This document shows positions 9,541 to 63,073 of a stretch of DNA of 63,073 bases, piece by piece. Where the stretch lies: contig JBAUGX010000111.1 in NCBI GenBank assembly GCA_049679965.1, positions 1-63,073 on the forward strand, written 5' to 3'. Every line of letters starts with the position of its first letter. The first letter of the stretch is position 1. The notes under the pieces were generated by a model. It did not search any database and was not told where the DNA came from. It saw nothing but the letters and a program-made list of their open reading frames with translations. Position numbers and translations under genes: made by a program. This DNA is from Vicinamibacterales bacterium (GTDB taxonomy: Bacteria; Acidobacteriota; Vicinamibacteria; Vicinamibacterales; CAVVIG01).

Positions 9541-9598
9541 GGACACCACCTCCTTTGCGCCAGGGTTTCGAGCCTTCAGGCCGCCCACCCTGGTTTTC

Positions 9599-12924: not shown

Positions 12925-13451
12925 AACATCACCTTCAGCTGCGGCCTCAGACGAAAGAGCATCGGCATGGCCAACGCCCATTCCACGCTGACAACGGCGA
13001 GCGCGATCGGGATCGACGGAGCGAGCGCGACCGCACCCAGACGCGCTCCTGCGAGGTACGCCAGCGGACCGCCAATCGCGCCCACGACGGCGGCGACAGC
13101 AGCCCGCGGCCCAAGCAATGCGGCGAGATCATCGAGCGACGGGGCGAGGTTGACCCATAACGCGACCATCCAGATCGGAGCGGGCCAGCCGGCCGCTGCC
13201 TGCGGCGGAAAGTCGAGGACTCCCGCGATCGCCAGGATGCCGTCGAGCACCGTGCCGACGAGCGCAGCCGTCGCGGCCAGCCACGCGAGCCGCCACCCGC
13301 GTGCCGGCGTGGCCGCATGGGCAACGAGCAACAGGGCGACGACGCAGGGTCCGAGCAGCGGATGTCCGGCGGCGGCGCCCAACACGCACGCGAACCATCC
13401 CACCTGCACGCCGACGAACCTCACGACCGGTCCTGCCAGGGGCTGAGCCAT
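12921..13451 (-). CDS. DUF2878-like membrane protein
   Basis: The protein is hydrophobic (VRFVGVQVGWFACVLGAAAGHPLLGP...). ATG 13451 lies 4 nt after the upstream stop. This family typically sits in this operon type. Confidence 0.65.
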   Translation of the reverse strand: MAQPLAGPVVRFVGVQVGWFACVLGAAAGHPLLGPCVVALLLVAHAATPARGWRLAWLAATAALVGTVLDGILAIAGVLDFPPQAAAGWPAPIWMVALWVNLAPSLDDLAALLGPRAAVAAVVGAIGGPLAYLAGARLGAVALAPSIPIALAVVSVEWALAMPMLFRLRPQLKVML

Positions 13452-35363: not shown

Positions 35364-35446
35364 CGGTCTCTCCCTTCGGACAAGGACCTATTCTGCCACG
35401 AGGGCCCACGATATACTGACGGACCACGTCGTGACGCAGTTTGGCG

Positions 35447-36973
35447 ATGGAGCACATGACACAGACCAAGAAGCGGACTCCCTTCGACGGACGCATCCTG
35501 ATGCTCGGCTGCGGATCCGTGGGCCGATGCACCCTGCCGCTGGTGCTCCGCCACATCGACATGCCGGCCAGCCGCATCACGGTGATGGACTTCGAGGATG
35601 TGCGACCGAAGATCGAGGAATCGCTCAAAGCCGGCGTGGTCTTCAGGCAGGCGCGCCTGACCCAGGACAACTATCAGAAGCTGCTCGGCGAGCTCGTGGG
35701 CGCGGGCGACGTCATCCTCGATCTCTCCTGGAACGTCGAAACGTTCGATCTGCTCGCTTGGTGCGCCGAGCACGACGTCCGCTACCTCAATACATCCCTC
35801 GAAGAGTGGGATCCCTACGGCGATATCGAGAACAAGTCACCGTACGAACGCAGCCTGTACTCCCGCCAGATGCGGATCCGGGCGCTCAAGAGCCGCCTCA
35901 ATTCGCGCTCCAAGCCGAGCGCGACCGCCATCATGGACCACGGCGCCAACCCGGGCCTCGTCAGCCACTTCACCAAACGCGCGCTGCTCGAAATCGCCAC
36001 CGCCATGCTCGAAAAAGGAATCCCGGCGGCGACCGAGGTCAATAGGGCGGCGTTCGAGAAGCTCGTGGCCAATGCCGAAGCCGAAGGCGAAGGGTCATTC
36101 GCCCGGCTGAGCCAGGCGACCGGCACCAAGGTCGTGCACATCTCGGAGCGCGACACGCAAGTCTCGTCCCGACCCAAGGCGCCCAACGAATTCGTCAACA
36201 CGTGGTCGATTGAGGGTTTTTTCGAGGAAGGCACGGCGCCCGCCGAGCTTGGTTGGGGCACGCACGAGCGCCGCCTCCCACGGCACGCGCACACGCCGAT
36301 TGGCGGTCCCGGCAACCAGATCTTTCTCGCGCAACCGGGCATTCGGACGTTCGTCCACTCGTGGGTCCCCGCCGGCGGACCGATTATCGGGATGGTGGTG
36401 CGCCATGCCGAGTCCTTCACCATCAGCGACTACCTGACGGTCTGGGAGGATACGCCCGAGGGACGGCTCGCCGTCTATCGCCCGACGGTCCATTACGCCT
36501 ACATGCCCTGCGACAACGCCATCCTCAGCCTCTACGAGCTGACGATGCGCAACTTCCAGCTCCAGCCGAAGCTCAGGATCATGGCGGACGAGATCACCGG
36601 CGGGATGGACGAACTTGGCGTGCTCCTCATGGGCCACGGCCTCACCGGCTGGTGGACCGGCTCGCAGCTAGATATCCACGAGACGCGCCAGCTCGTGCCA
36701 GGCCAGAACGCGACCACGCTTCAGGTCGCCGCCTCCGTGCTCGGGGGATTGGTCTTCATGATTCACCACCCGAGCAAGGGCATCCTCGTGCCCGACGAGC
36801 TGCCGCACAGGGAGATTCTCGATATCGCCGGTGGTTACCTGGGGCCCTGTCCGTCGGTCCAGACGAATTGGACGCCGCTCGAGAGCCGGTCCCGCTTGTT
36901 CGCGAAGTGGGGCGCTCCACCCGTGGACGAGGCGGACCTCTGGCAATTTGCCAGTTTCGCCCTGGAACCTTGA
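35447..36973 (+). CDS. hss: homospermidine synthase-like (saccharopine-dehydrogenase fold), paralogue 1
   Basis: The protein reads RILMLGCGSVGRCTLPLVLRH...ILDLSWNV...YLNTSLEEWDPY...HGANPGLVSHFTK...FVNTWSIEGF. The start is ATG 35447; the track begins at TTG 35441. Confidence 0.75.
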   Translation: MEHMTQTKKRTPFDGRILMLGCGSVGRCTLPLVLRHIDMPASRITVMDFEDVRPKIEESLKAGVVFRQARLTQDNYQKLLGELVGAGDVILDLSWNVETFDLLAWCAEHDVRYLNTSLEEWDPYGDIENKSPYERSLYSRQMRIRALKSRLNSRSKPSATAIMDHGANPGLVSHFTKRALLEIATAMLEKGIPAATEVNRAAFEKLVANAEAEGEGSFARLSQATGTKVVHISERDTQVSSRPKAPNEFVNTWSIEGFFEEGTAPAELGWGTHERRLPRHAHTPIGGPGNQIFLAQPGIRTFVHSWVPAGGPIIGMVVRHAESFTISDYLTVWEDTPEGRLAVYRPTVHYAYMPCDNAILSLYELTMRNFQLQPKLRIMADEITGGMDELGVLLMGHGLTGWWTGSQLDIHETRQLVPGQNATTLQVAASVLGGLVFMIHHPSKGILVPDELPHREILDIAGGYLGPCPSVQTNWTPLESRSRLFAKWGAPPVDEADLWQFASFALEP

Positions 36974-36976
36974 GAC

Positions 36977-38257
36977 GTGAAGCTGACCGATCTTCGGGGC
37001 ATCCTGCAGTACGTCCCCCAGTTCCGCGAAAAGACCTTCATCCTCGCGGTCGACGGCGCCATCGTCACCGATGACAACTTCGCCACGCTGCTGCTGGACG
37101 TGGCGCTCCTGTGGTCGCTCAACATCCGGGTGGTGCTCGTCCACGGCGCGTCGGCGCAGATCAGGGCGCTCGCCGAAGAGCACCACGTCAAGGCCTCGGA
37201 TTTCGACGGCACGGGCGTCACCGACGCTCCCACGCTCGACTTGGCGTTGACGGCCGCCAACCGCCTGACGCACGAGATTCTGGAAGGTCTGTCCGCCAAC
37301 GACCTGCGCGCCGCCACCACGAATGTGATCATCGCCCACCCGGTCGGCATCATCCAGGGCGTGGACCATCTCTTCACCGGCAAGGTCGAGCGCGTCGACA
37401 CCGATCTGCTCCAGTCGCTGCTCACGCAGGGCGTCGTCCCGGTCATTCCCCCGCTCGGCTTCGACGGCGACGGCAAGACGTATCGCGTGAATTCAGACGG
37501 CGTGGCGGTGGCCGTGGCCGAACAGCTGAAGGCCATCAAGCTGATCTTCGTCACCACCCAGGATGGATTGATCCACCGCGGGGAACTGATTCGACAGATG
37601 CTCGTGGCGGACCTAGGCAAGCTCATCCAAACCGACAGCGCGGGTTTCGCGACCGACATGCTCTCCAAGGCGCAACACGCGGCGGCCGCCTGCCAGGCCG
37701 GCGTTCCCCGTGTCCACGTGATCAACGGCACCCTGGACGAAGGCTTATTGGGGGAAGTGTTCTCGAACCACGGCCTCGGGACGCTCATCTATGCGAACGA
37801 GTACGAGCACATCCGGCCAGCCAAGAAGAAGGACGTGCGGGCCATTCAGCTGCTGACCAAGCAGGCCGTCGAGGCCGAGGAGCTGGTGAAACGCACCAGG
37901 GCGGTGATCGAAAAGAGCCTCGGCGACTACTACATCTTCGAAATTGACAAGAACTCCGTGGGGTGCGTCGCCCTGCATGTGTATCCCGAGCAGAACAAGG
38001 GTGAGTTGGCGTGCCTGTACGTCGCCTCCTCGCACGAAAATCAGGGCATCGGCCGCAAGCTCATCCAGTTTGTCGAAGCCAAGGCGCGCGAATTGGGCTT
38101 GAAGGAGCTGCTCGCGCTCTCGACGCAGGCCTTCACGTACTTCCAGTCGAAAGCGGGATTTGTCGAAGGCACGCCGGACGATTTGCCGCCCGAGCGCCTG
38201 GAGAAGTACGCACAGAGCGGCCGGCACTCGAAGGTGCTGGTCAAGAAGCTCAAATAA
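36977..38257 (+). CDS. argA: amino-acid N-acetyltransferase (N-acetylglutamate synthase: AAK + GNAT)
   Basis: The protein is collinear with E. coli ArgA as I remember it: FREKTFILAVDGAIV...NIRVVLVHGASAQI...; the GNAT half is ELACLYVASSHENQGIGRKLI; the C-terminus is RHSKVLVKKL. Confidence 0.85.
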   Translation: MKLTDLRGILQYVPQFREKTFILAVDGAIVTDDNFATLLLDVALLWSLNIRVVLVHGASAQIRALAEEHHVKASDFDGTGVTDAPTLDLALTAANRLTHEILEGLSANDLRAATTNVIIAHPVGIIQGVDHLFTGKVERVDTDLLQSLLTQGVVPVIPPLGFDGDGKTYRVNSDGVAVAVAEQLKAIKLIFVTTQDGLIHRGELIRQMLVADLGKLIQTDSAGFATDMLSKAQHAAAACQAGVPRVHVINGTLDEGLLGEVFSNHGLGTLIYANEYEHIRPAKKKDVRAIQLLTKQAVEAEELVKRTRAVIEKSLGDYYIFEIDKNSVGCVALHVYPEQNKGELACLYVASSHENQGIGRKLIQFVEAKARELGLKELLALSTQAFTYFQSKAGFVEGTPDDLPPERLEKYAQSGRHSKVLVKKLK

Positions 38258-38273
38258 GGGAGTTCACAGAGGG

Positions 38274-39737
38274 ATGCCGACCTTTTCTCGTCGAATCGTG
38301 TTCGTCGGCTTTGGGGCCGTCGCGCGGTGCACGCTGCCGATTCTGCTGCGCCACGTCACCGTCGATCCCAGGCTCATCACCATCATCGAGTTCGATCCGG
38401 ACGAGGCGGCGCTTCGGCCCTGGATCGAGCGCGGCGTGACGTTCGTCAAGAACCGCGTGACGGAGGACAACCTCGGCTCGCTCCTCGGCACGCATCTGTC
38501 GGCCGGCGACCTGCTCATCGATCTGGCCTGGAACATCGACTGCGGCGAGGTGGTGCAGTGGTGTCACGACCACGGCGTGCTGTACGTGAACACGTCGGTG
38601 GAACTCTGGGATCCGTACGCCGGCGCGGACAACAAGCCTCCGACGGAGCGGACGCTGTACTGGCGCCACATGAAGCTGCGGGCGCGCGTGGCCTCGTGGA
38701 AGGAGCCTGGGCCGACGGCCGTGATCGAGCACGGCGCCAATCCGGGCCTGATCAGTCACTTCACGAAGCAGGCGCTCCTGGACATCGCGGAACGGGCGCT
38801 GGCGGAACGCAAGTTCGCCGGCGCGCAGGCCGAGCGCGTCGCGCATCACGCCGCGGCGCGGGAGTTCAACCACCTGGCCCACCAGCTGGGCGTCAAGGTC
38901 ATCCATTGCAGTGAGCGCGACACGCAGATTACCGATCGCCCCAAGGAAGTGAACGAGTTCGTCAACACCTGGAGCGTCGAGGGCTTCCGCGAGGAAGGCA
39001 CGACGACGGCCGAGATGGGCTGGGGCACGCATGAGAAAGAGCTGCCCGCGCTCGCCTTCGAGCACACTGAGGGTCCCCGCAGCCAGATCTGTCTGGCGCG
39101 GATGGGCATCAACACCTATGTCGTCAGCTGGGTGCCACCGGACCACCTCATCGTCGGCATGGTCGTCCGCCACGGCGAAGCCTTCACGATTACCGAGAAA
39201 CTGACCGTCTGGGACGGCGGAAAGGCCGTCTACCGGCCGACGGTGCATTATGCGTATTGTCCGGCCGACGTGGCGCTTGCCTCGCTTCACGAGCTGCGCG
39301 GCCGCGACTACAACCTGCAGCCGCGCATCCGCATCCTGACCGACGATGAGATTACGAGCGGCGCTGACATCCTCGGCGCACTCGTCATGGGCCACCCGTA
39401 TCAGTCGTGGTGGTGCGGATCGGACCTCGACATCGAGGAGTCCCGGCGCCTCGTGCCCCATCAGAACGCCACCACCATGCAGGTCGCCATTTCCGTCGTG
39501 GCCGCCTGCCGGTGGATGATCGACAACCCGCGCCGCGGGGTGTGCGTGCCCGACGACCTGCCCCACGACTACATCCTGGAGATCAGCAAACCGTACCTGG
39601 GCAAGTTCATCTCCGTGGCGTCGGACTGGAATCCGCTCAAGCACTACACCAACGCCTTTCTCGGCTTCAACAATCCTCAGATCGATCGGTCCGATCCGTG
39701 GCAGTTCAAGAATTTCCTGATCACCGAGGGAGACTAG
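38274..39737 (+). CDS. homospermidine synthase-like, paralogue 2
   Basis: The protein reads RIVFVGFGAVARCTLPILLRH...LIDLAWNI...YVNTSVELWDPY...HGANPGLISHFTK...FVNTWSVEGF. By eye it is about half identical to paralogue 1. The start is ATG 38274. Confidence 0.75.
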   Translation: MPTFSRRIVFVGFGAVARCTLPILLRHVTVDPRLITIIEFDPDEAALRPWIERGVTFVKNRVTEDNLGSLLGTHLSAGDLLIDLAWNIDCGEVVQWCHDHGVLYVNTSVELWDPYAGADNKPPTERTLYWRHMKLRARVASWKEPGPTAVIEHGANPGLISHFTKQALLDIAERALAERKFAGAQAERVAHHAAAREFNHLAHQLGVKVIHCSERDTQITDRPKEVNEFVNTWSVEGFREEGTTTAEMGWGTHEKELPALAFEHTEGPRSQICLARMGINTYVVSWVPPDHLIVGMVVRHGEAFTITEKLTVWDGGKAVYRPTVHYAYCPADVALASLHELRGRDYNLQPRIRILTDDEITSGADILGALVMGHPYQSWWCGSDLDIEESRRLVPHQNATTMQVAISVVAACRWMIDNPRRGVCVPDDLPHDYILEISKPYLGKFISVASDWNPLKHYTNAFLGFNNPQIDRSDPWQFKNFLITEGD

Positions 39738-40870
39738 TGGACGAGAAAACGCTGCTCCGGCTGGCCAAAACCCACGGCACGCCCCTCGTCGTCGTGGACC
39801 ACAAGGTGTTGCGCGAGAATTACGGACAGTTTCGCAAGTACCTGCCGCGCGTGCAGGCCTATTACGCCGTCAAAGCCAACAGCGCCTCCGAGATTGTGCG
39901 GACGTTCTACGAGGCGGGCGCAAGTTTCGATGTGGCGAGCATGGCCGAGTTCCTGACGGTGTACGAGAACGTGAAAGACCTCTCGGAGGAGGCGCGACAG
40001 GCCTTCATCTGGGACCGCATCATCTACGCCAACCCCATCAAGGCGACCGAGACCCTCGAACAGCTGGATCCCTACAAGCCCCTGGTGACCTACGACAACC
40101 TCGAGGAGGTCATCAAGATTGCCAAGCACGCGCCGCACGCGGGACTCGTGCTGCGGTTGGGCGTGCCGAATACCGGATCGATGGTGGAGCTGTCGAGCAA
40201 GTTCGGGGCGTTGCCGGGCGAGGCCGTGGACCTCATCATGTTTGCCCGCGACCACAAGCTGGAAGTCGAGGGGCTCAGCTTCCACGTCGGCAGCCAGTGC
40301 ACGAACCTCCAGAACTACATCCAGGCGCTCCAGCTGTCCCACAGCGTGTTCGCCGAAGCCAAAGCGCAGGGCGTCGAGCTCAAGCTGCTTGATATCGGCG
40401 GAGGCTTTCCGGCGCACTACGACGACACGGTCCCCGCCTTCAGGAACGTGGCTCGGGCGATTAACCGGGAGCTGGACCGCCTCTTTCCGCAACCGGTCGA
40501 GATTCTCGCCGAGCCGGGGCGATTTCTCGTGGCCTCCGCGGCGACCGCGGTTTCGCAGATCATTGGCAAAGCCATCCGTGGCGGGAAGCTCTGCTACTAC
40601 GTGAACGACGGCGTCTATCAGACCTACAGCGGCGTGATATTCGACCACTGCCAATACCCCGTGAAGAGCTTCAAGAACGCTCCCACCCAGATCTGCTCAG
40701 TGTTTGGCCCCACCTGTGATGCGCTCGACACGATCAGCCTGGCCGAGGAGCTGCCCGACATGGACCTGGGAGAGTTCGTCTACTCCAAGAACATGGGCGC
40801 CTACTCGGCGGCCAGCAGCACCTACTTCAATGGCTTTCCGCCCGCGCGGGTCGTACATGTGAATCAGTGA
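39737..40870 (+). CDS. group IV (alanine-racemase-fold) PLP decarboxylase, ornithine/basic-amino-acid type
   Basis: The PLP-lysine context is AYYAVKANS. The GGGFP loop and the FGPTCDALD active-site Cys are present. GTG 39737 shares one base with the preceding stop. Confidence 0.85.
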   Translation: MDEKTLLRLAKTHGTPLVVVDHKVLRENYGQFRKYLPRVQAYYAVKANSASEIVRTFYEAGASFDVASMAEFLTVYENVKDLSEEARQAFIWDRIIYANPIKATETLEQLDPYKPLVTYDNLEEVIKIAKHAPHAGLVLRLGVPNTGSMVELSSKFGALPGEAVDLIMFARDHKLEVEGLSFHVGSQCTNLQNYIQALQLSHSVFAEAKAQGVELKLLDIGGGFPAHYDDTVPAFRNVARAINRELDRLFPQPVEILAEPGRFLVASAATAVSQIIGKAIRGGKLCYYVNDGVYQTYSGVIFDHCQYPVKSFKNAPTQICSVFGPTCDALDTISLAEELPDMDLGEFVYSKNMGAYSAASSTYFNGFPPARVVHVNQ

Positions 40871-41718
40871 GGTGCGGTGCGGGAGGAGCTCCCCTCGGTT
40901 TGTGCGATGCGCTGCGCCCATGACCGCAGCACGCCGCCGCCGGGAAATGCGGTTCGCACACCGCCCTCGAATCGTGCTGTTTCCCCGCGGCCCGTGCGTT
41001 GTGCGCCTGCTGACGCCGACACCGGCACCTGCCAGATGTCCGCAAGCGCACTCAGCAGTGCCTGTCCCGTGGCGCCCTCGCCGACGTGACATCCGTGCAA
41101 CTCGGCGCTGCCAGCTCGGCTGAAGACCGCGGCGAGCCGTCCCCAGTCGCTTCGCATCACCCGAACCGCCTGCGCCGTCAACGCCGAGCCGTGCGATGTC
41201 GTCCGGCCACCGGGCGCTCCGTGCCCGGCGGAGACGATTTGGTATCCGGCGAGTCCGTGGCCGAAGATCCGGAGCAGCGCGAGTCTCCTGCCGCTGCGCG
41301 CAGCGATCACCTGATCGATCATCTGCGACACGCCGTTTGACATGCCGATGCTCGCGCTCTGAGCGGGCATGCCGGCGCGCGCGAGCTCACTGGCTGCGAC
41401 AAGGCCGAACTGCTGCCCGCTTCGGATGGAGGCGACGATGTCTCGACCCTCGATCATCGCCACGACGAGGTCATCGACGTCGACGTGGTCGACCGCGGCA
41501 TACGGTCCCAGGTCGAGGAGTCGGCGCCACGTGGCCGTGTCGACCATCCCTGTTTGCGCCAGGGGTGGATTGGCCCGCTGAAACGCGCGGACGGCGTCGG
41601 CGGTCCCCTGGCCAAACGAGCCGTCGATGGTGATGGCCGCCTGCGGCGGGCGGGTGGCCAGCAGCAGCTGGACCAGGACGACCTTGGGGTCGTTGTCACC
41701 CAGATGGATGTCGATCAT
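40864..41718 (-). CDS. PG_binding_1 + DUF4347-like domain protein
   Basis: The N-terminus VVLVQLLL...IDGSFGQGTADAVRAFQ is a peptidoglycan-binding repeat. The C-terminus LRIFGHGLAGYQIV...AELHGCHVGEGATGQALLSALADIWQVPVSAS matches the DUF4347 pattern (HGSPG...LYGCNVA...VAAS). Confidence 0.65.
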   Translation of the reverse strand: MIDIHLGDNDPKVVLVQLLLATRPPQAAITIDGSFGQGTADAVRAFQRANPPLAQTGMVDTATWRRLLDLGPYAAVDHVDVDDLVVAMIEGRDIVASIRSGQQFGLVAASELARAGMPAQSASIGMSNGVSQMIDQVIAARSGRRLALLRIFGHGLAGYQIVSAGHGAPGGRTTSHGSALTAQAVRVMRSDWGRLAAVFSRAGSAELHGCHVGEGATGQALLSALADIWQVPVSASAGAQRTGRGETARFEGGVRTAFPGGGVLRSWAQRIAQTEGSSSRTAPH

Positions 41719-41830
41719 GAAGGCGCCTCACACTTCTCGGGACACGCGGCCCACCGATTATGGCGCTCGTCAAAGGGGTGTCAAGTGCTGCACACTGACG
41801 CACCCGCAGCGACGCGGGGGAGGTGAGATT

Positions 41831-43294
41831 ATGGCTGGCCGACTCGAATTCGGGTTCAATTTCCAGACCGCCGGCAGGCCGGGCGCGCGTCGCGTGGACC
41901 CGGAGGCGCCGATGCGCCTGCTGCTCATCGGCGATTTCAGCGGCCGCGGCGAACTCGGCATCAGCGACCTCGCCTCATTCGACCGGCGACCGATCCTTCG
42001 CCTCGATTTGGACAACTTCGACCAGGTGCTCGCCAGGCTGAAGCCTTCGCTGCGGCTGGCCGTCCCCGGCGCGCCGCTCGTCGAGATGTCGATGTCCGCA
42101 CTCGATGATTTCCATCCCGACCGGTTGCTGCGTCAGCTCGAGCTGTTTCGATCGCTGCGGGACACGCGCGCGCGGCTGCAGGATCCGTCCCGGTTCGCCG
42201 AGGCCAAAGCCGAATTGGGCCTGACCGAACGGCTTCTCGGGCGCTTACCGGGCGGTGGCGAGGCGGCCGCGGCACGTGCGGCCGCCGGGGCGTCGGACAT
42301 CGATGCATTCGTCCGCGGCCTCATCGCTCCGTATGTCGTGGCCGACACCACGGCGCCGCAGCGGGCGCAGGCCACTGCCGCCGTCGACACAGCCATCGGC
42401 GAACTGCTGCGCTCGGTGCTGCACGCGCCTGCCTTCCAGACCCTCGAGGCGCAGTGGCGCGGCGTGCGCTGGCTGCTGGACAATCTCGAGATCAACGACC
42501 AGCTGCAGATCCATCTGCTCGACATCACCCGGGCCGAGCTGCTGGCCGATGCGCAGAAGATGCATGCGGATCCGCAGTCTTCGGCCCTGCGGCGGCGGCT
42601 GGCGGAGGGGCCCGCGGCTGGCGGCGACGCGACGCGCTGGTCCTCGTGCGTGGCGCTGTTCGATGTCGGCCCATCCGACGACGATCTGACGTGGTTGTCC
42701 GCACTGGGCGCCATTGGCGCGCTGGTGGGGGCGCCGACGCTGGCCACCGCCACACCTTCGCTGCTCGGCGTCGACAACATCGAGCACCTGCCCGATCCGC
42801 GCGACTGGCGGCCCTTGTCCGGCACGGCCGCCGCATATTGGCAGGCCTTGCGCCAAAGCGAGCTCGCTCGCTGGATCGGGCTGGCCACGCCGCGCCTGCT
42901 GATGCGGCAGCCGTACGGCGCCACGACCAATCCGATCGAAGGCATTTCGTTCGAGGAGTTTAGCGGCACGCCCGAACACGCCCACCTGCTATGGGCGCCA
43001 GCCGCGCTGGGTTGTGCGCTGCTGCTCGGTCGGGCGTTCCGCGAGCATGGATGGGAGATGGACCCGGGCGACGTGCAGCAGATCACCGACCTGCCGGCGT
43101 ACGTCGTGGAACGCGACGGAGAGCGGCAGCTCCAGCCTTGTGCCGAGGTGCTGATGAGCGAGCGTGCCGCGGCGGCCATCGCCGAACGAGGGATCATGGC
43201 TGTGGCCAGCTACAAGGACCGCGCGGAGGCGCGACTGGTTCGATTCCAGTCGGTCGCCGAGCCCGCGGGCGCGCTGGCGGGTCCGTGGTCGTGA
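41831..43294 (+). CDS. fused TssB(VipA)-TssC(VipB)-like sheath homologue, C-terminally short
   Basis: GGGGGAGG lies upstream of ATG 41831. TssB-like segments are RLLLIGDFSGRG, LRLDLDNFDQVLARLKP and LDDFHPDRLL. TssC-like segments are LHAPAFQTLEAQWRGVRWLL, LATPRLLMRQPYG, ISFEEF, LLWAPAALGCALLLGRAF and IAERGIMAV. Confidence 0.65.
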   Translation: MAGRLEFGFNFQTAGRPGARRVDPEAPMRLLLIGDFSGRGELGISDLASFDRRPILRLDLDNFDQVLARLKPSLRLAVPGAPLVEMSMSALDDFHPDRLLRQLELFRSLRDTRARLQDPSRFAEAKAELGLTERLLGRLPGGGEAAAARAAAGASDIDAFVRGLIAPYVVADTTAPQRAQATAAVDTAIGELLRSVLHAPAFQTLEAQWRGVRWLLDNLEINDQLQIHLLDITRAELLADAQKMHADPQSSALRRRLAEGPAAGGDATRWSSCVALFDVGPSDDDLTWLSALGAIGALVGAPTLATATPSLLGVDNIEHLPDPRDWRPLSGTAAAYWQALRQSELARWIGLATPRLLMRQPYGATTNPIEGISFEEFSGTPEHAHLLWAPAALGCALLLGRAFREHGWEMDPGDVQQITDLPAYVVERDGERQLQPCAEVLMSERAAAAIAERGIMAVASYKDRAEARLVRFQSVAEPAGALAGPWS

Positions 43295-43381
43295 TGCCAC
43301 GAATCACATTGAAGGTTGGGATGCAGGCTCGTACAATCCGCCAGTCGGCGTCTCACCACAGATGAAACGGAGGGGGCTGCC

Positions 43382-44341
43382 ATGGTGATCAATTGGAGAG
43401 CGGGCGGGTTGCTCGTCGGCGTCGTCGGCATTGTCGGGCTGGTGGGCGTGCCCATGTTGGCGCAGAACCCGCCTCCGGCACCCGCGGGTGTGCGGATGGA
43501 TATCTCCGGAGCCTGGATGGTGACCACCCAGGAAGACCAGCCCAACTACGCGCCGGGTCCCGAGCTGGGCGACTACGCGGGCCTGCCGATCAACGCCGCG
43601 GCGCGTCAGACGGCCGAAGCCTGGGACGCGACCATCCTCTCGCAACCAGAGCGGCAGACGCAGGCGCACCCGATCATCTACATCGGGAACAACCGAGGTC
43701 CTCAACGGATCCTGCCGATCCTCGATCCGGTCACCCAGGTGCAGGTCGCGTACGCCATGGCCGGCAGTTTTGGTCGTGCGGAGCGCCTTATTTGGATCGA
43801 CGGCCGGAACCACCCGTCGGATTACTCCGAGCACACGTGGGACGGCTACTCGACCGGCGAGTGGGACCAGAACGGCGCGTTCGTCATCACGACGACGCAT
43901 ATGAAGTGGGGCATCACCCGGCGTAACGGCGCGCCGACGAGCCCTTACGCCAAGATGGTTGAGCACTTCATCCGCCATGGCCTGTTCATGACGGTGAACA
44001 TCTGGATCGACGATCCGATTTTTCTCGAAGAGCCGTTCATGCGTAACTACACGGAAACCTGGAACCCGGGCGGAGCGTTGGCGGCTGGCAACGTGTTCCA
44101 GTCGGTCGACGAGCTCGGAGACAAGCCGCAGGGCTGGGTCCCGTTCTTCGCGCTCGGCACGAAGCAGACCGAGTTCGCCGAGATGCACGGTATTCCGTTC
44201 GAAGCCACGCAGGGCGGCGCCCAGACGACCTATCCCGAGTACCAGGTCAGGATCCAACAGCTGATTCGCGAGGAGGCTGCAGCGAAGGCGGCCAGGGCTG
44301 CAGCACCAGCGGCTCCGGCGCGTCGGCCGGGCGTTCGTTAA
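43382..44341 (+). CDS. secreted hypothetical protein
   Basis: GGAGGGGG lies upstream of ATG 43382. The signal peptide is MVINWRAGGLLVGVVGIVGLVGVPMLAQ. The mature part is Trp/Tyr-rich. No family recognised. Confidence 0.55.
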   Translation: MVINWRAGGLLVGVVGIVGLVGVPMLAQNPPPAPAGVRMDISGAWMVTTQEDQPNYAPGPELGDYAGLPINAAARQTAEAWDATILSQPERQTQAHPIIYIGNNRGPQRILPILDPVTQVQVAYAMAGSFGRAERLIWIDGRNHPSDYSEHTWDGYSTGEWDQNGAFVITTTHMKWGITRRNGAPTSPYAKMVEHFIRHGLFMTVNIWIDDPIFLEEPFMRNYTETWNPGGALAAGNVFQSVDELGDKPQGWVPFFALGTKQTEFAEMHGIPFEATQGGAQTTYPEYQVRIQQLIREEAAAKAARAAAPAAPARRPGVR

Positions 44342-44444: not shown

Positions 44445-47400
44445 ATGTCCGACGTGCCGGACAATCGCGCCTCCGACACACTCGTTGGCAGGACGTTCGC
44501 CCACTACGAGATCGCCGCCAAGATCGGCGGCGGCGGGATGGGCATCGTCTACAAGGCGCGCGACACGAAACTCGGCCGTGTCGTCGCGCTCAAATTCCTG
44601 CCGCCGCAGTGGAGTCATGACGAGACCGCCAAGCAGCGCTTCATCCGCGAGGCGCAGGCGGCCTCGGCCACCGATCACGCCAACATCTGCACGATTCACA
44701 GCATCGAGTCCACCGACGATGGCCAGCTGTTCATCGTCATGGCGTACTACGAGGGCCAGACGCTCAAGCAGGCGCTCGAAGCCGGCGCGCTCGGTACCGA
44801 TCTAGCGCTCTTGACGGCGACGCAGGTGGCCGAGGGGCTGGCGCGAGCGCATGCGCAGGGCGTGGTGCATCGCGACATCAAGCCCGGCAACCTGATGATG
44901 ACCGAGGATGGGGTCAAGATCCTCGACTTCGGGCTCGCCAAGTTCGCCGACGCGCTGCAGTTGACGATCGTTGGCACGACGATCGGGACCGCCGCCTACA
45001 TGTCGCCCGAACAGGCCAGGGGCGAGGACGCAGACGCGCGAAGCGACATCTGGGCGCTGGGCGTGGTGCTCTACGAGATGATCGCGGGCCGCGCGCCCTT
45101 CAAGGGCAGTTACCCCGAGGCCGTGTCGTACGCGATCAGGAACGATCCGCCGCCGCCCCTGCCCGGCGTGCCCGAGGCGATCGAGCGACTGGTCCTGCGC
45201 GCGCTCCAGAAGAATCCCGATGATCGCTTCCAAAGTGCACGCGAGCTGGCGCGGGAGCTTCGAGTGCTGCAAGGGTGGACGGTCCCGCAACACCTCCAGA
45301 CGGCGCCTCTCGCGACGGTGCCGCAGCCCTCGCAGATCTCGCCCGGACTCTGGCGCCGCGTCCGCGACGGACTGACCCCAATTCGTCTCGCGACGCTGGC
45401 AGTGGCGCTCGCCGCAGTCACCGCTGGGACTTCCTGGTGGCTCACGCGGCCGATCGTGCGTCTGGCGGTCGCCGTGGCGCCGGTGAGCAATGAAACCGGC
45501 TACGCGGAGCTCGACCCATATCGTCTCGCGCTGACCGCGTCGCTCATCCGCGAGCTCGGCGACTCGCCGACCATCCGCGTCATTCCCTATGAGCGGCTCC
45601 TGGAGATCGAGCGCGGACTTGTCCTCGACGGAACGGACCCGACCAGCCGCGAGGTTCTCCAGGCCCTCACCACGCACAGCGGGGCCAGACTCGTGATCGT
45701 GCCGACCATCGTGCGCGACAACAACGGAAACTGGCGCGCGCGCGCGGACTTTCGGAGCACGGAGACGGCGACAAGCCTCGCGGCATACGAGACCGACCCT
45801 TTGACCTCATCGCTCATCAACGCCACCGCGTATGGCCTGACCTCCTCGTTGGCTGCGGGCATCGAGAGGCGATTCAAGGCGACCGAACCGTTCAAGCTGC
45901 GCGTGCTCGACACGCTCCGAAATCTGGTTGGTGACAAGAGGCCTCCGGCGACTGCGAGGTTCCGCACATTGGAGGCGGCGGCTGCGTTCGAACAGGGCCT
46001 CAAGGCGTACAGCGAGTTCGAATACGTCGTGGCCCAGCAGGCATTCAGAACCGCCGCCGAGCGGGATGCCAGGAATCCTCTGCCGTTTGCCTGGTCGAGC
46101 CGCGTCGCACAGCGGATGGGCCGGCTCGAGGATGCGAGAACGGCGGCGGATCGGGCGCTCGGACTCGTCACACCCGAGACGCCCGCCGCCGACAGCCTGT
46201 TTGTGCAGGCCGTCTCAGCGGAGTCACGCCGCGATTTCACGACGGCTGAAGCGCGCTATCGCGATCTCCTGGCGCGGTATCCCGACGAACCTGCGTGGTT
46301 GGCCGAACTGGCGGGGTTCGAAGAGCGCCAGACGCGGTATGAGGCGGCCGCCAGCCTGCACCATCAAGCGCTCGCGCTCGACGCCCACCTGATCCGCCCG
46401 CGCCTGGAGCTGTGCCGTTTGTACAGCCCGACGCTCCTGAACGAATCCGCCAGCGCCAGAGAGCAAGGCCGGCTCGCCCTCTCAGGCTACAAGGCTATCG
46501 GCGACCCCAGCGGGGAGGGGCAGGCCTTGATGTGCCTGACCGACGTGCTCCGCACCGGGGGCGACGAGGACAAACGTGAAGCGAGAGGGCACGCCGAGGC
46601 CGCGGTCGGGATCTTCGAGAAGTTGCGGTACGACTACAACGTGGCGCGCGCCTACAACTACGTGGCGCTGGCAGTCGGATCGCAAGGTGATTTCCGCCAG
46701 GCAGCGGCCCTGTGGGAACAGTCCCTCGCCTCTGCGAGAGCCGCGGGCAACACGGCGCTCGAATCGCTCGTCCTGATGAACCTCGGTACCACGTACGAAA
46801 ACCTCGGCCGCCGATCGCTCGCGGTGAATTATCGCCAGCAGAGCCTCCGGTTGTTCGAGGCCGTTGGAGACGAAAAGCGGGCGGCCGAGTACCGGGCAAA
46901 CACGGGCGCGATGCTCATCGAGTACGGCGACCCCGAGGAGGGGATGAAGAACGTGGAGACCGCGCTGGCGGTTTTCCAAAGGCTCGGAGACAAAGACTTC
47001 GAAGTGTTTTGCCTGCAGCTCAGGGCGGCGTACTACCGCTACGCGGGGCGGCAGACGGAGTCCGCGAGCGACTTGAACCGAGCGGTGAGTATCGCCACAG
47101 CGCGGGACCTGAAAGATCGGATCGCCGAATTGAACGTTGGACTCGCCCGCTCGCGATTCGATGTGAACGACTACGAGGGCACACGCAGTCTGTTGCTGAA
47201 GGCTCTCGGCGACGACCCGGCTCAGGGGAGCCTTCACGCCCGAATTCGCTTCGGACGGGTTCTGCTTCGCGAGGGAGACATCAGTGGCGCGCGGGCGTAC
47301 CTGAACCAGGCGTTGGTCGAGACCGAGAAGCGCGGCCTCCTCTCGATCCTCCCGCTGCTCCACACCACGCTCGGCGAACTGGCGTACGAGTCGGGCGACA

Positions 47401-47903
47401 TGAGCGACGCGCGGACATCCTTCCGGAAGGCCGCCGCCCTCTGGACGGCCGACGAGCTGCCCGACGCGGCCAGCGTCGAGGCGCGAGCCTATCTTGGACT
47501 GATCGACGCGCTGGTGGACGGCAGGCGCGACAGCGGCGAAAGAGCCGTTCGGTCGAGTCTCGATCAAGCCCGCAAAATGGGCCGCTTCGCGCTCGAGATG
47601 CAGTGCCGCGTGTACCTGGCCCGGATTGCGCTGCTCGCGCGCAGGGTCGAAGAGGCCGAACGCGTGTTGATCGAGATTCCAGCCGACGAGGGGCAGCGTC
47701 TTCTCGGTGCGGAGATTCAGGCGCAGGCGCACCATTGGCGCAGTGCCGCACTGACCTTGCGCGGAGACAGGGCTGGCGCCCTCGCGGAGAAGCGCATGGC
47801 GCAACAACTGGTCGAGGCTGTCCGCGCCTCGCTCGCCAGCGAGCAGTCGCGGCTCGGCTTTGCCTCGCGGCCGGACATTCAATTGATGATGGGGGGTAGA
47901 TGA
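44445..47903 (+). CDS. Ser/Thr protein kinase with TM segment, sensor-like middle domain and long TPR array
   Basis: Kinase motifs are GGGGMGIVYKARD, VALKFL, HRDIKPGNLM, DFGLAK and YMSPEQ. The TM segment is LATLAVALAAVTAGTSWWL. About 650 aa of TPR-like repeats follow. Confidence 0.9.
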   Translation: MSDVPDNRASDTLVGRTFAHYEIAAKIGGGGMGIVYKARDTKLGRVVALKFLPPQWSHDETAKQRFIREAQAASATDHANICTIHSIESTDDGQLFIVMAYYEGQTLKQALEAGALGTDLALLTATQVAEGLARAHAQGVVHRDIKPGNLMMTEDGVKILDFGLAKFADALQLTIVGTTIGTAAYMSPEQARGEDADARSDIWALGVVLYEMIAGRAPFKGSYPEAVSYAIRNDPPPPLPGVPEAIERLVLRALQKNPDDRFQSARELARELRVLQGWTVPQHLQTAPLATVPQPSQISPGLWRRVRDGLTPIRLATLAVALAAVTAGTSWWLTRPIVRLAVAVAPVSNETGYAELDPYRLALTASLIRELGDSPTIRVIPYERLLEIERGLVLDGTDPTSREVLQALTTHSGARLVIVPTIVRDNNGNWRARADFRSTETATSLAAYETDPLTSSLINATAYGLTSSLAAGIERRFKATEPFKLRVLDTLRNLVGDKRPPATARFRTLEAAAAFEQGLKAYSEFEYVVAQQAFRTAAERDARNPLPFAWSSRVAQRMGRLEDARTAADRALGLVTPETPAADSLFVQAVSAESRRDFTTAEARYRDLLARYPDEPAWLAELAGFEERQTRYEAAASLHHQALALDAHLIRPRLELCRLYSPTLLNESASAREQGRLALSGYKAIGDPSGEGQALMCLTDVLRTGGDEDKREARGHAEAAVGIFEKLRYDYNVARAYNYVALAVGSQGDFRQAAALWEQSLASARAAGNTALESLVLMNLGTTYENLGRRSLAVNYRQQSLRLFEAVGDEKRAAEYRANTGAMLIEYGDPEEGMKNVETALAVFQRLGDKDFEVFCLQLRAAYYRYAGRQTESASDLNRAVSIATARDLKDRIAELNVGLARSRFDVNDYEGTRSLLLKALGDDPAQGSLHARIRFGRVLLREGDISGARAYLNQALVETEKRGLLSILPLLHTTLGELAYESGDMSDARTSFRKAAALWTADELPDAASVEARAYLGLIDALVDGRRDSGERAVRSSLDQARKMGRFALEMQCRVYLARIALLARRVEEAERVLIEIPADEGQRLLGAEIQAQAHHWRSAALTLRGDRAGALAEKRMAQQLVEAVRASLASEQSRLGFASRPDIQLMMGGR

Positions 47904-48256
47904 TGGAGTTTGACGATGATGGCTATGGGCAGTTCGGGGGCAACGGCAGCGTGGAGTGGACGATCGACGTCAAGAACCCGAAGTTTGCATGCTCGACCGA
48001 GGTGCGCCCGGAGGGTCTTCGCCAGAATGGCGCCGACGCCAACGGCCGGGCTGGCGATAATTTCACGCTCAGTCTCGAGCTTCCGGCGACGATGAACAGC
48101 CTTGACGAGTTCCGGAAGTATCTGATGACCCCGAAGAATTGGGAGGTGGAGGGCCGTGACCGCCTGACGATCAAGCTCCAGATCGAATCCCACAATCCTG
48201 ATCAGATTCGGATCAGCTGGCCAAAGGCCCGAGTCCCCCGAAAGGGCGGCGCGTAA
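47900..48256 (+). CDS. small hypothetical protein translationally coupled to the kinase
   Basis: The start forms an ATGA overlap with the kinase stop. The 118-aa product has balanced composition (MMEFDDDGYGQFGGNGSVEWTIDVKNPKF...) and the gene is visibly AT-richer than its neighbours. No family recognised. Confidence 0.5.
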   Translation: MMEFDDDGYGQFGGNGSVEWTIDVKNPKFACSTEVRPEGLRQNGADANGRAGDNFTLSLELPATMNSLDEFRKYLMTPKNWEVEGRDRLTIKLQIESHNPDQIRISWPKARVPRKGGA

Positions 48257-48277
48257 CGCCACCACCGGGCGCGCCCT

Positions 48278-49159
48278 TCACGCCCTGAACAACCGCCGGA
48301 GACGCCCCCCGATGGAAGGGGCGCTCGACTTCTCGCTGAGCGTCGCCAGGTCGGTGCGCAACTGGCGCGCCGACTGGTACCGCTCGTCGGCGCGCTTGCG
48401 CAGCAGCCGGTCAACGATGCGCTGCAGCTGGGGCGGTCGCTCGGGCGAGAACGTCACGAGGGGCTCGGGCGCCTTTTCGAGGACGTTGGTCACCGTGTCG
48501 GACGGCGACGGGCCGGCAAAGGGCAGCCTTCCCGTGGCCATTTCGTAGATCACGACACCCAGCGAAAACAGGTCGCTCCTCGGGTCGAGCGGCATCTGCA
48601 GGATGCGTTCGGGCGCCATGTAGTTGGCCGTCCCAAGCGGCCGGCCGGGTATCGTCGACCCGTCGGTCGGCATCTCCTCGCCGGCGTCCCTGAACCGCCG
48701 CGCCAGCCCGAAGTCCAGCACCTTCACGTGGCCCGACGGGCTGACGAAGACATTGCCCGGCTTGACGTCGCGGTGAACGATGCCGCGGCCGTGCGCCCCA
48801 TCGAGCGCATCGGCGATCTGCCCCGCGATGGACACGACCTGAGCCGTCTCGAGCGGTTCCCGCACCATCCGGAGCTTGAGGTTCATGCCTTCGAGCCGCT
48901 CCATGGCGATGAACCAGCGGCCCTCGTGCGCGTCGATCTCGTGGATCGTGCAGATGTGGGGGTGGTTCAGGAGCGCGATGGTCTCGGCCTCGCGCCTGAA
49001 CCGCCGGATGGCATCGGGGTCGCCGGCCACTTCGTCGGGTAAGAACTTGAGGGCCACCCGGCGCGGCAGCCGGGTGTCCTCGGCCTCGTACACCACGCCC
49101 ATGCCGCCGATGCCCAGCCTCCCGATCACGCGATAGCGCCCAAAAGTGGTGCCGACCAT
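48278..49159 (-). CDS. stand-alone Ser/Thr protein kinase (catalytic domain only)
   Basis: Kinase motifs are GIGGMGVVYEAED, VALKFL, HRDVKPGNVF, DFGLAR and YMAPER. The protein is 293 aa with no TM segment. Confidence 0.9.
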   Translation of the reverse strand: MVGTTFGRYRVIGRLGIGGMGVVYEAEDTRLPRRVALKFLPDEVAGDPDAIRRFRREAETIALLNHPHICTIHEIDAHEGRWFIAMERLEGMNLKLRMVREPLETAQVVSIAGQIADALDGAHGRGIVHRDVKPGNVFVSPSGHVKVLDFGLARRFRDAGEEMPTDGSTIPGRPLGTANYMAPERILQMPLDPRSDLFSLGVVIYEMATGRLPFAGPSPSDTVTNVLEKAPEPLVTFSPERPPQLQRIVDRLLRKRADERYQSARQLRTDLATLSEKSSAPSIGGRLRRLFRA

Positions 49160-49218
49160 GCCGACGAGGATACCGCAGGTGTTCGGTTTGGCCCCGGCTG
49201 GCGTTAATACTCAATGCA

Positions 49219-49842
49219 ATGCAAAACGGTATGATCGCGCTGGTTCAGCCGCTGATGACCGACCATGACCCGGCCCTCCTGAGCGACGAGCCCACCATCG
49301 AGCTTGTCGTCCGGGCGCAGGCCGGAGATCGCGCCGCCGTTGAAGCCCTGCTCGAACGCTGTCTGCCACCGCTCAAGCGCTGGGCGCACGGGCGGCTGCC
49401 GGCCAGCGCGCGCGGCCATCTGGACACCGGCGATCTCGTTCAGGACGCCGCATTGCACCTGGTCCGACGCATCGACCGGTTCGAGCCACAGCACGTGGGC
49501 GCGATGCAGGCGTATCTGCGCCAGTCGGTCATCAACCGGATTCGAGACGAAGTGCGCCGGATCGGAAGGGCGCCGGCGCCGATCGAGCTGCCGCCGGACC
49601 CGCCTTCCGACGACACATCCCCGCTCGAGACGGCGATCAAAGCCGAAGACTACCGGCGCTATCGCGAAGCCCTTGGCGATCTCTCGCCGAAGGACCGTGA
49701 GATGATAGTGGCGCGCATAGAGGTTCAGTGGAGCCTCGGCGAGATCGCCCATCGCTTCGGCCTGCGCACACCGGACGCCGCGCGGATGGCGGTGGCCCGT
49801 GCCCTCAAGCGACTCACCAAACGCCTGACGGACTGTCCCTGA
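49219..49842 (+). CDS. ECF-type RNA polymerase sigma factor
   Basis: Sigma2 reads ELVVRAQAGDRAAVEALLERCLPPL...DLVQDAALHLVRRIDRF. Sigma4 reads LSPKDREMIVARIEVQWSLGEIAHRFG...RALKRL. The gene is divergent from the kinase, and no anti-sigma gene is adjacent. Confidence 0.85.
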   Translation: MQNGMIALVQPLMTDHDPALLSDEPTIELVVRAQAGDRAAVEALLERCLPPLKRWAHGRLPASARGHLDTGDLVQDAALHLVRRIDRFEPQHVGAMQAYLRQSVINRIRDEVRRIGRAPAPIELPPDPPSDDTSPLETAIKAEDYRRYREALGDLSPKDREMIVARIEVQWSLGEIAHRFGLRTPDAARMAVARALKRLTKRLTDCP

Positions 49843-62036: not shown

Positions 62037-62097
62037 AAAAAGGGTAGACTAAGAACTGAGCATTCGTTGCTCTTCACGATCATTTAGGAGGAGTTCC

Positions 62098-63073
62098 TAT
62101 GGTTCGCCGTATCAGCGGTCGCCATTCATGGTTGCCCGTGCTGGCCGCGTTGGCCGTTTTGGTGAGTGCCACGCCCGTGGCTGCCCAGACCGGCCGGGTG
62201 CAGGGAGTGGTCGTAGACTCGATGGGAATGCCGATCGAGGGCGCGACGGTCATCATCACGCAGGTCAACGGCTCCAGCAAATACGAAACAAAGACGGGAA
62301 AAGACGGTAGCTACCTCCAGATAGGACTCATTGGAGGGACGTCGTACCTCGTCACCGTCAAGAAGGATCAGCTGACAGCCGTACGGACTGTCATGATGCG
62401 CGGCACGGGGTTCCGGGTCAATTTCACGCTCGAGCCGAACAATCCCGACGGGCTTCCCAAAGAGGGTGTCAGCGCCGCGGCCGAGTCCCAGCGGGTGTTC
62501 AGCGAAGGCTTGGAGCTGAGCCGCGCAGGCAAGTTCGACGACGCGATCCAGAAGTTCACGGCAGTCGCCGGGCTCAACGCGAAGTGCTCCGACTGTTTCT
62601 ACAACATCGGGTACGCCTACCTGCAGCAGAAGAATTACGACAAGGCGGAAGAGGCGTACAAGAAGGCGATTGAGATCAAGCCGGACTACGCGGACGCGTT
62701 CACCGACCTGGCGAAGATCTACACCCTTCAGCGGAAGTTCGACCAGGCCGCTCAGGCGAGCGCGAAGGCTGCTGAGTTTGGTGCCGCCAGCGCCGCGGCG
62801 CCTGGCGCCCTCGGCGGGGGCAATGCGGACGCGCTCTTCAACCAGGGTGTCACGCTCTGGAACGGCGGCAAGATTGCCGAAGCCAAGAAGCAGTTCGAAG
62901 CAGCGATTGCGGCCAATCCCAACCACGCCGAGTCGCACTACCAGCTCGGGATGGCGCTCGTCAACGAGAACAATCTCAAGGGCGCCGCGGCCGAGTTCGA
63001 CACCTACTTGAAGCTCGCGCCCAACGGACCGAACGCCGCGACGGCCAAGGCGATCGCCGCGCAGCTCCCGAAG
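62098..63073 (+). CDS. secreted CarboxypepD_reg-like + TPR protein (3' end outside window)
   Basis: This ORF is absent from the track because no stop is reached. AGGAGG (62085-62090) precedes ATG 62098. The protein reads MVRRISGRHSWLPVLAALAVLVSATPVAAQ, then GRVQGVVVDSMGMPIEGATVII, then TPR repeats (YNIGYAYLQQKNYDKAEEAYKKAIEIKPDYADAF...). Confidence 0.7.

Follow-up and report, generated by a model that had tools for sequence, protein, structure and literature searches.

The DNA analysed here, called the window, is a stretch of 63,073 nucleotides of contig JBAUGX010000111.1 from a Vicinamibacterales bacterium (assembly GCA_049679965.1). Its open reading frame (ORF) at positions 41831 to 43294 of the plus strand encodes a protein of 487 amino acids (plus stop) in which homologues of TssB and TssC, the two sheath subunits in a type VI secretion system (T6SS), are joined in a single chain that lacks the C-terminal (handshake) domain of TssC. 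In line with the preliminary description of this DNA, a gene with PG_binding_1 and DUF4347-like domains is transcribed divergently across 112 nucleotides, and the fused gene is followed by a gene for a protein with a hydrophobic N-terminus and then by a kinase gene. The extent of the fused TssB-TssC(deltaC) sheath paralogue gene was defined by Pfam, PDB and Foldseek matches and by its conserved start and stop. The product starts with MAGRLEFGF, and the public gene call also uses the start at 41831; a longer stop-to-stop ORF from 41627 is present around it. The MAGRLEF start is conserved in the relatives at loci L004, L088 and L089 (L numbers denote the genomic loci compared).

The joining of TssB-like and TssC-like parts, proposed in the preliminary description, was borne out by matches in Pfam, NCBIfam, PDB and Foldseek. 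The TssB/VipA-like part, delimited by Pfam and NCBIfam coordinates and a MAFFT alignment, comprises residues 1-131 (41831..42223, plus strand) and contains the PMRLLLIGDFSG, DNFD and DDFHPD motifs and the domain-3 helix. It was matched by PF05591 (T6SS_VipA) at residues 22-118 (E 1.3e-12, above the gathering score) and by TIGR03358 (TssB) over positions 26-133 of 160, the score of 44.2 being below the equivalog cut-off of 97.25. Residues 132-154 (42224..42292, plus strand) form a variable linker predicted to be disordered, with a predicted local distance difference test score (pLDDT) below 50 at residues 133-154. The linker takes the place of the C-terminal tail of TssB and of roughly 25 profile positions at the start of TssC; it differs in length among members, and some subfamilies in a 28-sequence family alignment lack part of it. 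The TssC/VipB-like N-terminal and middle part covers residues 155-487 (42293..43291, plus strand). It was matched by PF05943 (VipB) at residues 181-475 (profile positions 3-300 of 301, E 7e-56) and by TIGR03355 (TssC) over positions 26-354 of 473, again with a score (187.9) below the equivalog cut-off (271.5), and it closes with the family-wide motif RFQSvAEPagALAGPWS.

Both sheath families are thus represented in the protein, while PF18945, the VipB C-terminal domain, had no match at E <= 0.01. Positions 355-473 of TIGR03355, i.e. about 119 C-terminal TssC profile positions, were unmatched, in agreement with the estimate of the preliminary description that roughly the last 100 residues are missing. 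No remnant of the TssC C-terminal domain was detected downstream of the ORF in any frame with phmmer and profile hidden Markov models (HMMs). In a sequence search of the PDB, residues ~156-479 matched TssC chains (E 3e-40 to 1e-17) and residues ~15-130 matched TssB chains (E 1.5e-5 to 1e-2), and the protein stops 9-10 residues past the last aligned TssC position. An AlphaFold 2 (AF2) model built on 28 homologues had a pLDDT of 84.7 and a predicted TM-score of 0.85, the low-confidence segments being the N-terminal 19 residues, the linker (133-154) and a short loop (264-266). With this model TssC/VipB chains ranked top in Foldseek (5n8n_B, 3j9g, 5urx; E 1e-19 to 1e-18), mostly over ~302 columns at 2.5 Å. 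No dedicated NCBIfam model matched above its cut-off. The ORF product differs from a canonical sheath subunit on three counts and is not one: it has no C-terminal domain, the two-subunit layout is replaced by one chain, and both equivalog scores lie below their cut-offs.

In the canonical sheath, the C-terminal domain of TssC (Domain 1) has two acceptor strands, beta11 and beta12, which take up a pair of donor strands from neighbouring protomers, namely the N-terminal strand beta1 of TssB and the C-terminal strand beta13 of TssC (PMC5807055). The donors point to the ring nearer the baseplate, and TssE has been proposed as the acceptor for the first ring (PMC5813253). In a MAFFT alignment with four canonical TssB proteins, GRLEFGFNF of the fused protein aligned with beta1 (PRVQIEYDVE), and the aligned donor strand is followed by the motif (L/A)P(F/M)xxxxxGD. 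The fused protein is homologous to both canonical subunits (TssB/TssC, VipA/VipB, HsiB1/HsiC1) and has kept the sheet elements of Domain 2 and the helices of Domain 3 in addition to the N-terminal strand of TssB. Unlike the canonical sheath, it is one polypeptide without Domain 1 (PF18945), and it therefore has no acceptor strands (beta11, beta12), no C-terminal donor strand (beta13) and no tube-facing layer.

The window protein almost certainly belongs to a conserved family of sheath paralogues with this architecture. A large protein collection was searched, in which 8000 scored candidates gave 381 matches; of the best 120 of these 381, which were detailed, 118 carry both domains, at lengths of about 307-541 amino acids. 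A one-genome-per-species scan confirmed at least 185 fused-gene loci, 80 of which were retrieved; the locus-level counts given below refer to the 82 loci analysed. The family is defined as a single chain of 440-540 amino acids with an MxGRxEFxF strand, the TssB motifs, a variable linker, the TssC motifs and a ...RFQSxAxPxxALxGPW end, and all of these are found in the window protein. In the 28-sequence alignment 54 columns are invariant and all sequences end at one motif, ...RFQSxADPxxALAGPW. The C-terminal end of every copy analysed (82/82) corresponds to query residues 477-487 and lies within a few residues of the copy's own stop. The window protein is 41-86% identical to the aligned members and 36-85% identical to those of the genome loci, its closest relative being L004, a Vicinamibacteria metagenome-assembled genome (MAG), at 85%. 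Members occur in Competibacteraceae, many Burkholderiales, Rhodocyclaceae, Methylobacter, Sedimenticola and Rhodospirillales, and also in Desulfobacteraceae, Rokubacteria, Gemmatimonadota, Terriglobia and Vicinamibacteria. A metagenome scan for close relatives with longer flanks yielded a single 2-kb contig.

In the sources, family proteins are currently labelled as sheath large subunit, ImpC or hypothetical. In full-text literature searches, no report of naturally fused TssB and TssC, of another TssC paralogue or of a sheath-like orphan came up, the only relevant protein being TssC40 of Agrobacterium tumefaciens. The fused family is widespread, has no name and has apparently not been studied or described, so that the novelty lies at the level of the family, as a seemingly undescribed sheath paralogue of unusual architecture.

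A protein without its C-terminal domain and without T6SS neighbours in the window might be the decaying remnant of a lost T6SS, with frameshifts and relaxed selection as the preliminary description had considered, or a tssB-tssC pair altered by mis-assembly or a frameshift. At least 82 loci, spread over many phyla, nevertheless share one fusion point and one stop position, and the architecture is identical in the independent assemblies L001, L002, L004, L088 and L089. Among four members of the window's clade, pairwise dN/dS was 0.22-0.27 (about 0.25), and the fused gene is intact in all four copies. The lack of a TssC C-terminal remnant in any frame also speaks against decay. Because of the fixed end in the 82 loci, the purifying dN/dS and the absence of frameshifts, decay and assembly artefact are so improbable that they can be set aside.

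To describe the genomic setting, genes of the loci were called by GC3-filtered (GC content at third codon positions) greedy ORF choice, neighbours were clustered with BLASTP, and recurrent clusters were named with Pfam. Loci were classified with phmmer, an orphan locus being one with a T6SS-free flank of at least 6 kb on each side. By this classification 59 of the 82 loci are T6SS-adjacent, 14 are orphan and 9 are uninformative short contigs. The dominant neighbour is vgrG, found no more than a few genes away in 53 of the 82 loci. It occupies the -1 position in 38 loci and the -2 position in 12, and in 53 of 54 cases it is on the opposite strand, i.e. divergent from the fused gene. Other recurrent neighbours, identified by Pfam on cluster representatives, are DUF4123 adaptors, DUF4280 (PAAR-like), TagH/Fha, PP2C, TssK and ClpV, followed by TssF, TssG, ImpE/TagJ, DUF2169, DUF6484 and DUF6931. 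Family genes are thus typically divergent from an operon of vgrG, PAAR-like, adaptor and effector genes. The idea in the preliminary description of a sheath homologue used outside a T6SS is weakened by these counts, because in most genomes the family is an accessory gene of T6SS loci.

In Burkholderiales the fused gene lies mid-cluster, with tssM-L-K-tagH-...-vgrG-DUF4280 on one side and tssH-G-F-E-tagJ-hcp-tssC-tssB on the other. An annotated plasmid of Phaeobacter sp. G2 has the order tssA-B-C-hcp-tagJ-tssE-F-G-H ... fused gene - vgrG - PAAR - tagH - tssK-L-M - tagF - PP2C - kinase. Its fused protein (636 amino acids; 30% identical to the window protein over residues 6-487) is encoded directly upstream of vgrG, alongside canonical tssB and tssC. 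Genes of the relatives P0010 and P0013, which are 44-49% identical to the window protein, adjoin those for DUF4280, Fha, VgrG, ClpV, TssG/F/E, ImpE and Hcp. Canonical TssB and/or TssC are encoded in the same locus as the fused gene in L008, L063, L062 and L076, and canonical tssB and tssC are likewise present in clusters whose flanks reach far enough. The fused gene is therefore an additional gene and not a replacement sheath, since complete clusters also carry canonical tssB and tssC. Unlike canonical tssBC, which is next to hcp and tssE, the fused gene lies next to vgrG. Taken together, these features make it likely that the family has an accessory role in T6SSs, extra to canonical tssB and tssC.

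Some additional features of these loci were observed. T6SS plasmids of the roseobacter genera Leisingera and Parasedimentitalea each have two matching places labelled 'sheath large subunit', and in Phaeobacter sp. G2 and Ruegeria conchae one of the two matching places spans the full length of the window protein. On the basis of these two full-length matches, plasmid-borne roseobacter T6SSs probably carry the fused paralogue routinely. A protein of ~450 amino acids with TPR and S-adenosylmethionine (SAM)-methyltransferase domains is encoded near the fused gene in ~20 loci, usually directly beside it (e.g. L083:11508-12863) and sometimes between vgrG and the fused gene. These loci are L040, L075, L025, L062, L006, L045, L042, L069, L087 and L051, and L020, L083, L076, L022, L079, L078, L048, L019, L086 and L065. 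The family may thus have a further conserved partner in this protein. It is not encoded in the window, where only the TPR stretch at 62060-63073 gave a match. A different methyltransferase (MTS + DUF7782 + DUF7059) is found at the +1 position in L010, L012 and L017.

Among known systems, TssC40/ImpD of A. tumefaciens is reported to be needed for the secretion of Hcp and to be non-redundant with the main TssC (PMC3702570). The fused gene resembles that of TssC40/ImpD in A. tumefaciens and rhizobia in being an extra TssC-like gene in a T6SS cluster of the TagJ/Fha/PpkA type. The homologue in Rhizobium beringeri (462 amino acids), encoded between tssC and tagJ, lacks a TssB part, continues past the end of the fused family and shares only 27% identity with the window protein in the TssC region. 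Assignment of the fused protein as a TssC40/ImpD-type paralogue was rejected because a TssB part is present in the window protein and the C-terminal region is absent from it. TagA, TagB and TagJ are non-core proteins of T6SS clusters that control sheath extension at one end or at the baseplate (PMC7896307). Their likeness to the fused family is a functional analogy, with no relationship in sequence or fold. Extracellular contractile injection systems have multiple sheath paralogues (Afp2/3/4, Pvc2/3/4), which keep the conserved C-terminal sheath domain. They offer the analogy of a specialised sheath paralogue at a particular position, e.g. near the baseplate, as against the bulk polymer; the Foldseek similarity of the fused protein to them was marginal (E 1e-3 to 1e-2).

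The anatomy of the protein suggests, tentatively, how it could act. It might dock onto a sheath but not be built upon, because the donor strand is retained and Domain 1 is missing. Its one donor strand would plug into a free Domain-1-type acceptor on the last (distal) sheath ring or, alternatively, into TssE at the baseplate, and the docked protein would then offer no site to the next subunit. It would be a non-propagating cap, collar or sheath-assembly regulator near the spike or baseplate, and not a polymerising sheath. The fixed place of the gene next to vgrG suggests a link to the spike and baseplate. Such a docking and capping mechanism is possible, but we would not call it likely. With one donor strand, no acceptor and no tube-contact layer, the protein gives rise to the hypothesis that sheath growth in TagJ/Fha-type systems is started by it, capped by it or coupled through it to the loading of spike and effector.

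Alternatively, the protein could be a regulator or decoy directed at ClpV or TagJ, binding one of them and tuning sheath disassembly without docking onto the lattice. In its favour, the protein has kept only the outer, T6SS-specific Domains 2 and 3, and several T6SS loci with long flanks also hold clpV/tssH and tagJ. Against it, roughly 25 profile positions at the start of TssC, where the ClpV-binding helix of Vibrio cholerae lies, are unmatched in the fused protein. A ClpV- or TagJ-directed role is improbable.

The window itself was searched for further T6SS genes. Its six-frame translation was compared with 38 reference T6SS proteins from annotated clusters by single-sequence phmmer and with profile HMMs of 17 T6SS families at E <= 1. 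Generic kinase-domain matches aside, no other T6SS family was matched in the 63 kb, which agrees with the preliminary description, and the stretch free of T6SS genes extends 41 kb upstream and 20 kb downstream of the fused gene. A canonical T6SS sheath protein of 493 amino acids is listed for Luteitalea pratensis, a member of Vicinamibacteria, in a table of PMC9230969, and T6SSs therefore exist in this class. In all probability the accessory gene in the window has become detached and works with a T6SS whose genes lie in another part of the genome, although we hold this only as more likely than not. This is the most economical explanation because the family is found mostly in T6SS loci, near vgrG and beside canonical tssBC, and because the class has T6SSs.

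The gene immediately upstream of the fused gene (-1 gene; 40864..41718, minus strand) is a tentative partner, characterised by Pfam, a family alignment, an AF2 model and Foldseek. Its product, a PG_binding_1 plus DUF4347-like protein of 284 amino acids, carries PG_binding_1 at residues 10-67 (Pfam) and, in the DUF4347-like domain, an invariant His154 and Cys210, which are 56 residues apart (family alignment). By inspection, it has no signal peptide. Its family comprises ~100 clusters of 170-360 amino acids, mostly PG_binding_1 plus DUF4347. The -1 gene is kept in L004 at 92% identity (dN/dS 0.09), and in L036, a distant gammaproteobacterial MAG with 45% GC, the fused gene is again directly preceded by a homologue. 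Conservation of the neighbours, which the preliminary description had raised, thus holds for the PG-binding/DUF4347 gene in L004 and L036, and not for the gene of the secreted protein, which L004 has not kept. The L036 homologue occupies two reading frames (8927-9388 and 9352-9747), which could reflect either a frameshift or an error in sequencing. At L036:8927-13417 the fused gene stands between two peptidoglycan-related genes, the downstream one encoding an FHA plus SLT transglycosylase protein (11720-13417); a predicted PIN-like toxin gene and a transposase-like gene lie just upstream.

The AF2 model of the -1 protein had a pLDDT of 89.7, and its N-terminus matched endolysin PG-binding domains in Foldseek. 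The C-terminal domain gave a weak full-length match to 9qpe_G (E 0.015, probability 0.96, TM-score 0.51 on the target), which we take, by its chain length, to be the C-terminal domain of Tce1 enclosed by Hcp3. Tce1 (PA0256) is a CPD-like putative cysteine protease with His186 and Cys240 that is loaded into the Hcp3 ring of the Pseudomonas aeruginosa H3-T6SS (PMC13323088). Besides this weak fold match, Tce1 and the -1 protein are alike in having two domains and no signal peptide and in their His...Cys spacing (54 in Tce1 and 56 in the -1 protein). The -1 protein differs in its PG_binding_1 N-terminal domain and in having relatives outside T6SS loci. Because of the Tce1-like fold and the His-Cys spacing, the -1 protein is a plausible T6SS cargo effector and may be a CPD-like cysteine protease. 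The window locus could then be an auxiliary effector module with the -1 gene in place of the usual vgrG operon. As a separate observation, the DUF4347 (PF14252)-like domain models as an alpha/beta fold with an invariant His and Cys that weakly resembles the CPD-like domain of Tce1, and DUF4347 in general may be a cysteine-protease-type domain.

Several observations weigh against a T6SS function of the window copy and against the docking proposal. The window lacks Hcp, TssE and other core genes, so that the usual placement of the family in a T6SS locus is not found there. In a neighbour-joining (NJ) tree, for which no support values were computed, the nearest companions of the window protein are L003 and L004, and then L026, L046, L056 and L077, all of which are orphan or too short to tell. 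A second acidobacterial clade, with proteins of ~445 amino acids, consists of four orphan loci and one that is too short. This clustering of orphans could point to a role apart from the T6SS in the lineages concerned. No neighbours are conserved among the orphan copies, which are surrounded by unrelated housekeeping genes. Pfam analysis of the -1 and +1 genes of ten orphan or short-flank loci (20 genes) gave unrelated functions or no match (SET, peptidase M3, PriA, OEP, dCTP deaminase, cytochrome b561, HAD, PQQ, DinB, GlnA, EamA, CbiX and GST), and within the window's clade the immediate neighbours differ already at 73-81% identity. No sequence-level similarity was found between the -1 protein and Tce1, and their fold likeness is weak. 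The -1 family as a whole was rejected as being generally T6SS-linked, since relatives 46-60% identical to the -1 protein occur in housekeeping contexts. Finally, the docking mechanism is drawn solely from which sheath elements are present or absent.

These observations bear on another explanation, in which Vicinamibacteria and other orphan clades have co-opted the fused protein for a task apart from the T6SS, such as forming a scaffold or ring that has nothing to do with secretion, either by itself or together with the PG-binding Cys/His protein. The 14 loci that are T6SS-free for at least 6 kb on each side, the grouping of orphans in the tree and the absence of other T6SS genes from the 63-kb window are consistent with it, as are the maintained purifying selection and the pairing with PG_binding_1-DUF4347 in two distant lineages. 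However, scattered orphan T6SS genes (hcp, vgrG and PAAR islands) are described as common (PMC13098142), and a cultivated member of Vicinamibacteria has a T6SS sheath. Moreover, the orphans keep all family motifs, including the TssB donor strand, which is meaningful only beside a Domain-1 acceptor, and relatives at 44-49% identity are embedded in T6SS loci. Besides the PG_binding_1-DUF4347 pairing, the orphans share no conserved partner gene. Co-option outside the T6SS, either alone or with the PG-binding protein, is thus unlikely. Somewhat less likely again is that the orphan clades (Vicinamibacteria and the acidobacterial proteins of 445 amino acids) hold a stand-alone sheath-fold module freed from the T6SS, possibly together with a PG-binding CPD-like protein. 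Such a stand-alone role would mean that the contractile-sheath fold is used for neither contraction nor secretion. Overall, an intact, detached T6SS accessory sheath paralogue, which could dock on a sheath end or baseplate without extending the polymer, is the explanation we favour, and we consider it fairly likely.

If this reading of the family is true, a further sheath-like protein that does not polymerise is encoded beside vgrG in many T6SS loci, among them loci in Burkholderiales, Competibacteraceae, Rhodobacterales plasmids, Acidobacteriota, Gemmatimonadota and Rokubacteria. The systems concerned are of the TagJ/Fha type, whose end-control proteins are only partly known. For annotation, the label 'contractile sheath large subunit / ImpC' can give a genome that carries only this paralogue the semblance of having a sheath gene or an orphan T6SS.

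The remaining features of the window lie around these two genes. On its minus strand, at 41784-41757, the divergent intergenic region between the -1 gene and the fused gene (41719..41830) has a strong sigma70-like match that is oriented towards the -1 gene (TTGACA-16-CATAAT); it is a consensus match only, with 11 of 12 positions. Two sigma70-like sites were found in this region, against 0.4 expected. Downstream of the fused gene, the +1 ORF starts at 43316 (43382 in the public gene call) and extends to 44341; its product has a hydrophobic N-terminus and no Pfam match. This secreted protein was rejected as a partner or immunity protein because it is missing from L004 (85% identical), L088 and L089. 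Its homologues were found only in the acidobacterial orphan locus L070 (14514-15464 and 16312-17262, with 40% and 26% identity), where the two paralogues lie about 3-6 kb from the fused gene beside genes of MacB/FtsX-type permeases. The +1 protein probably belongs to an acidobacterial family unrelated to the sheath gene.

The kinase gene at 44445-47903 encodes a protein of 1152 amino acids with Pkinase and TPR domains. A role as a PpkA-type gate was rejected, since only the generic kinase domain matches a T6SS-cluster kinase and no Fha, PppA or TagF is encoded in the window. The preliminary description had regarded the link of this kinase to the sheath gene as one of proximity, and no support beyond proximity was found. 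The stretch from 44445 to 49842 is rich in signalling genes: next to this Ser/Thr kinase it holds an ORF of 118 amino acids without a family, a kinase of 293 amino acids on the opposite strand and an ORF of 207 amino acids at 49219-49842.

At L003:1613-9464, in an orphan relative with 53% identity, a diversity-generating retroelement with an RVT_1 reverse transcriptase and bAvd adjoins the fused gene. The region also encodes two STAND NTPases, one of the NACHT and one of the nSTAND1 type, which carry FGE-sulfatase domains and are presumably the variable targets of the retroelement. Directly upstream of the sheath region of the window, positions 35441-40870 look like a polyamine biosynthesis cluster, with two genes of the saccharopine-dehydrogenase family, an AA_kinase plus GNAT gene and an Orn/DAP/Arg decarboxylase gene. 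The adjacency of the decarboxylase and PG_binding-DUF4347 genes is common to the window and L004.

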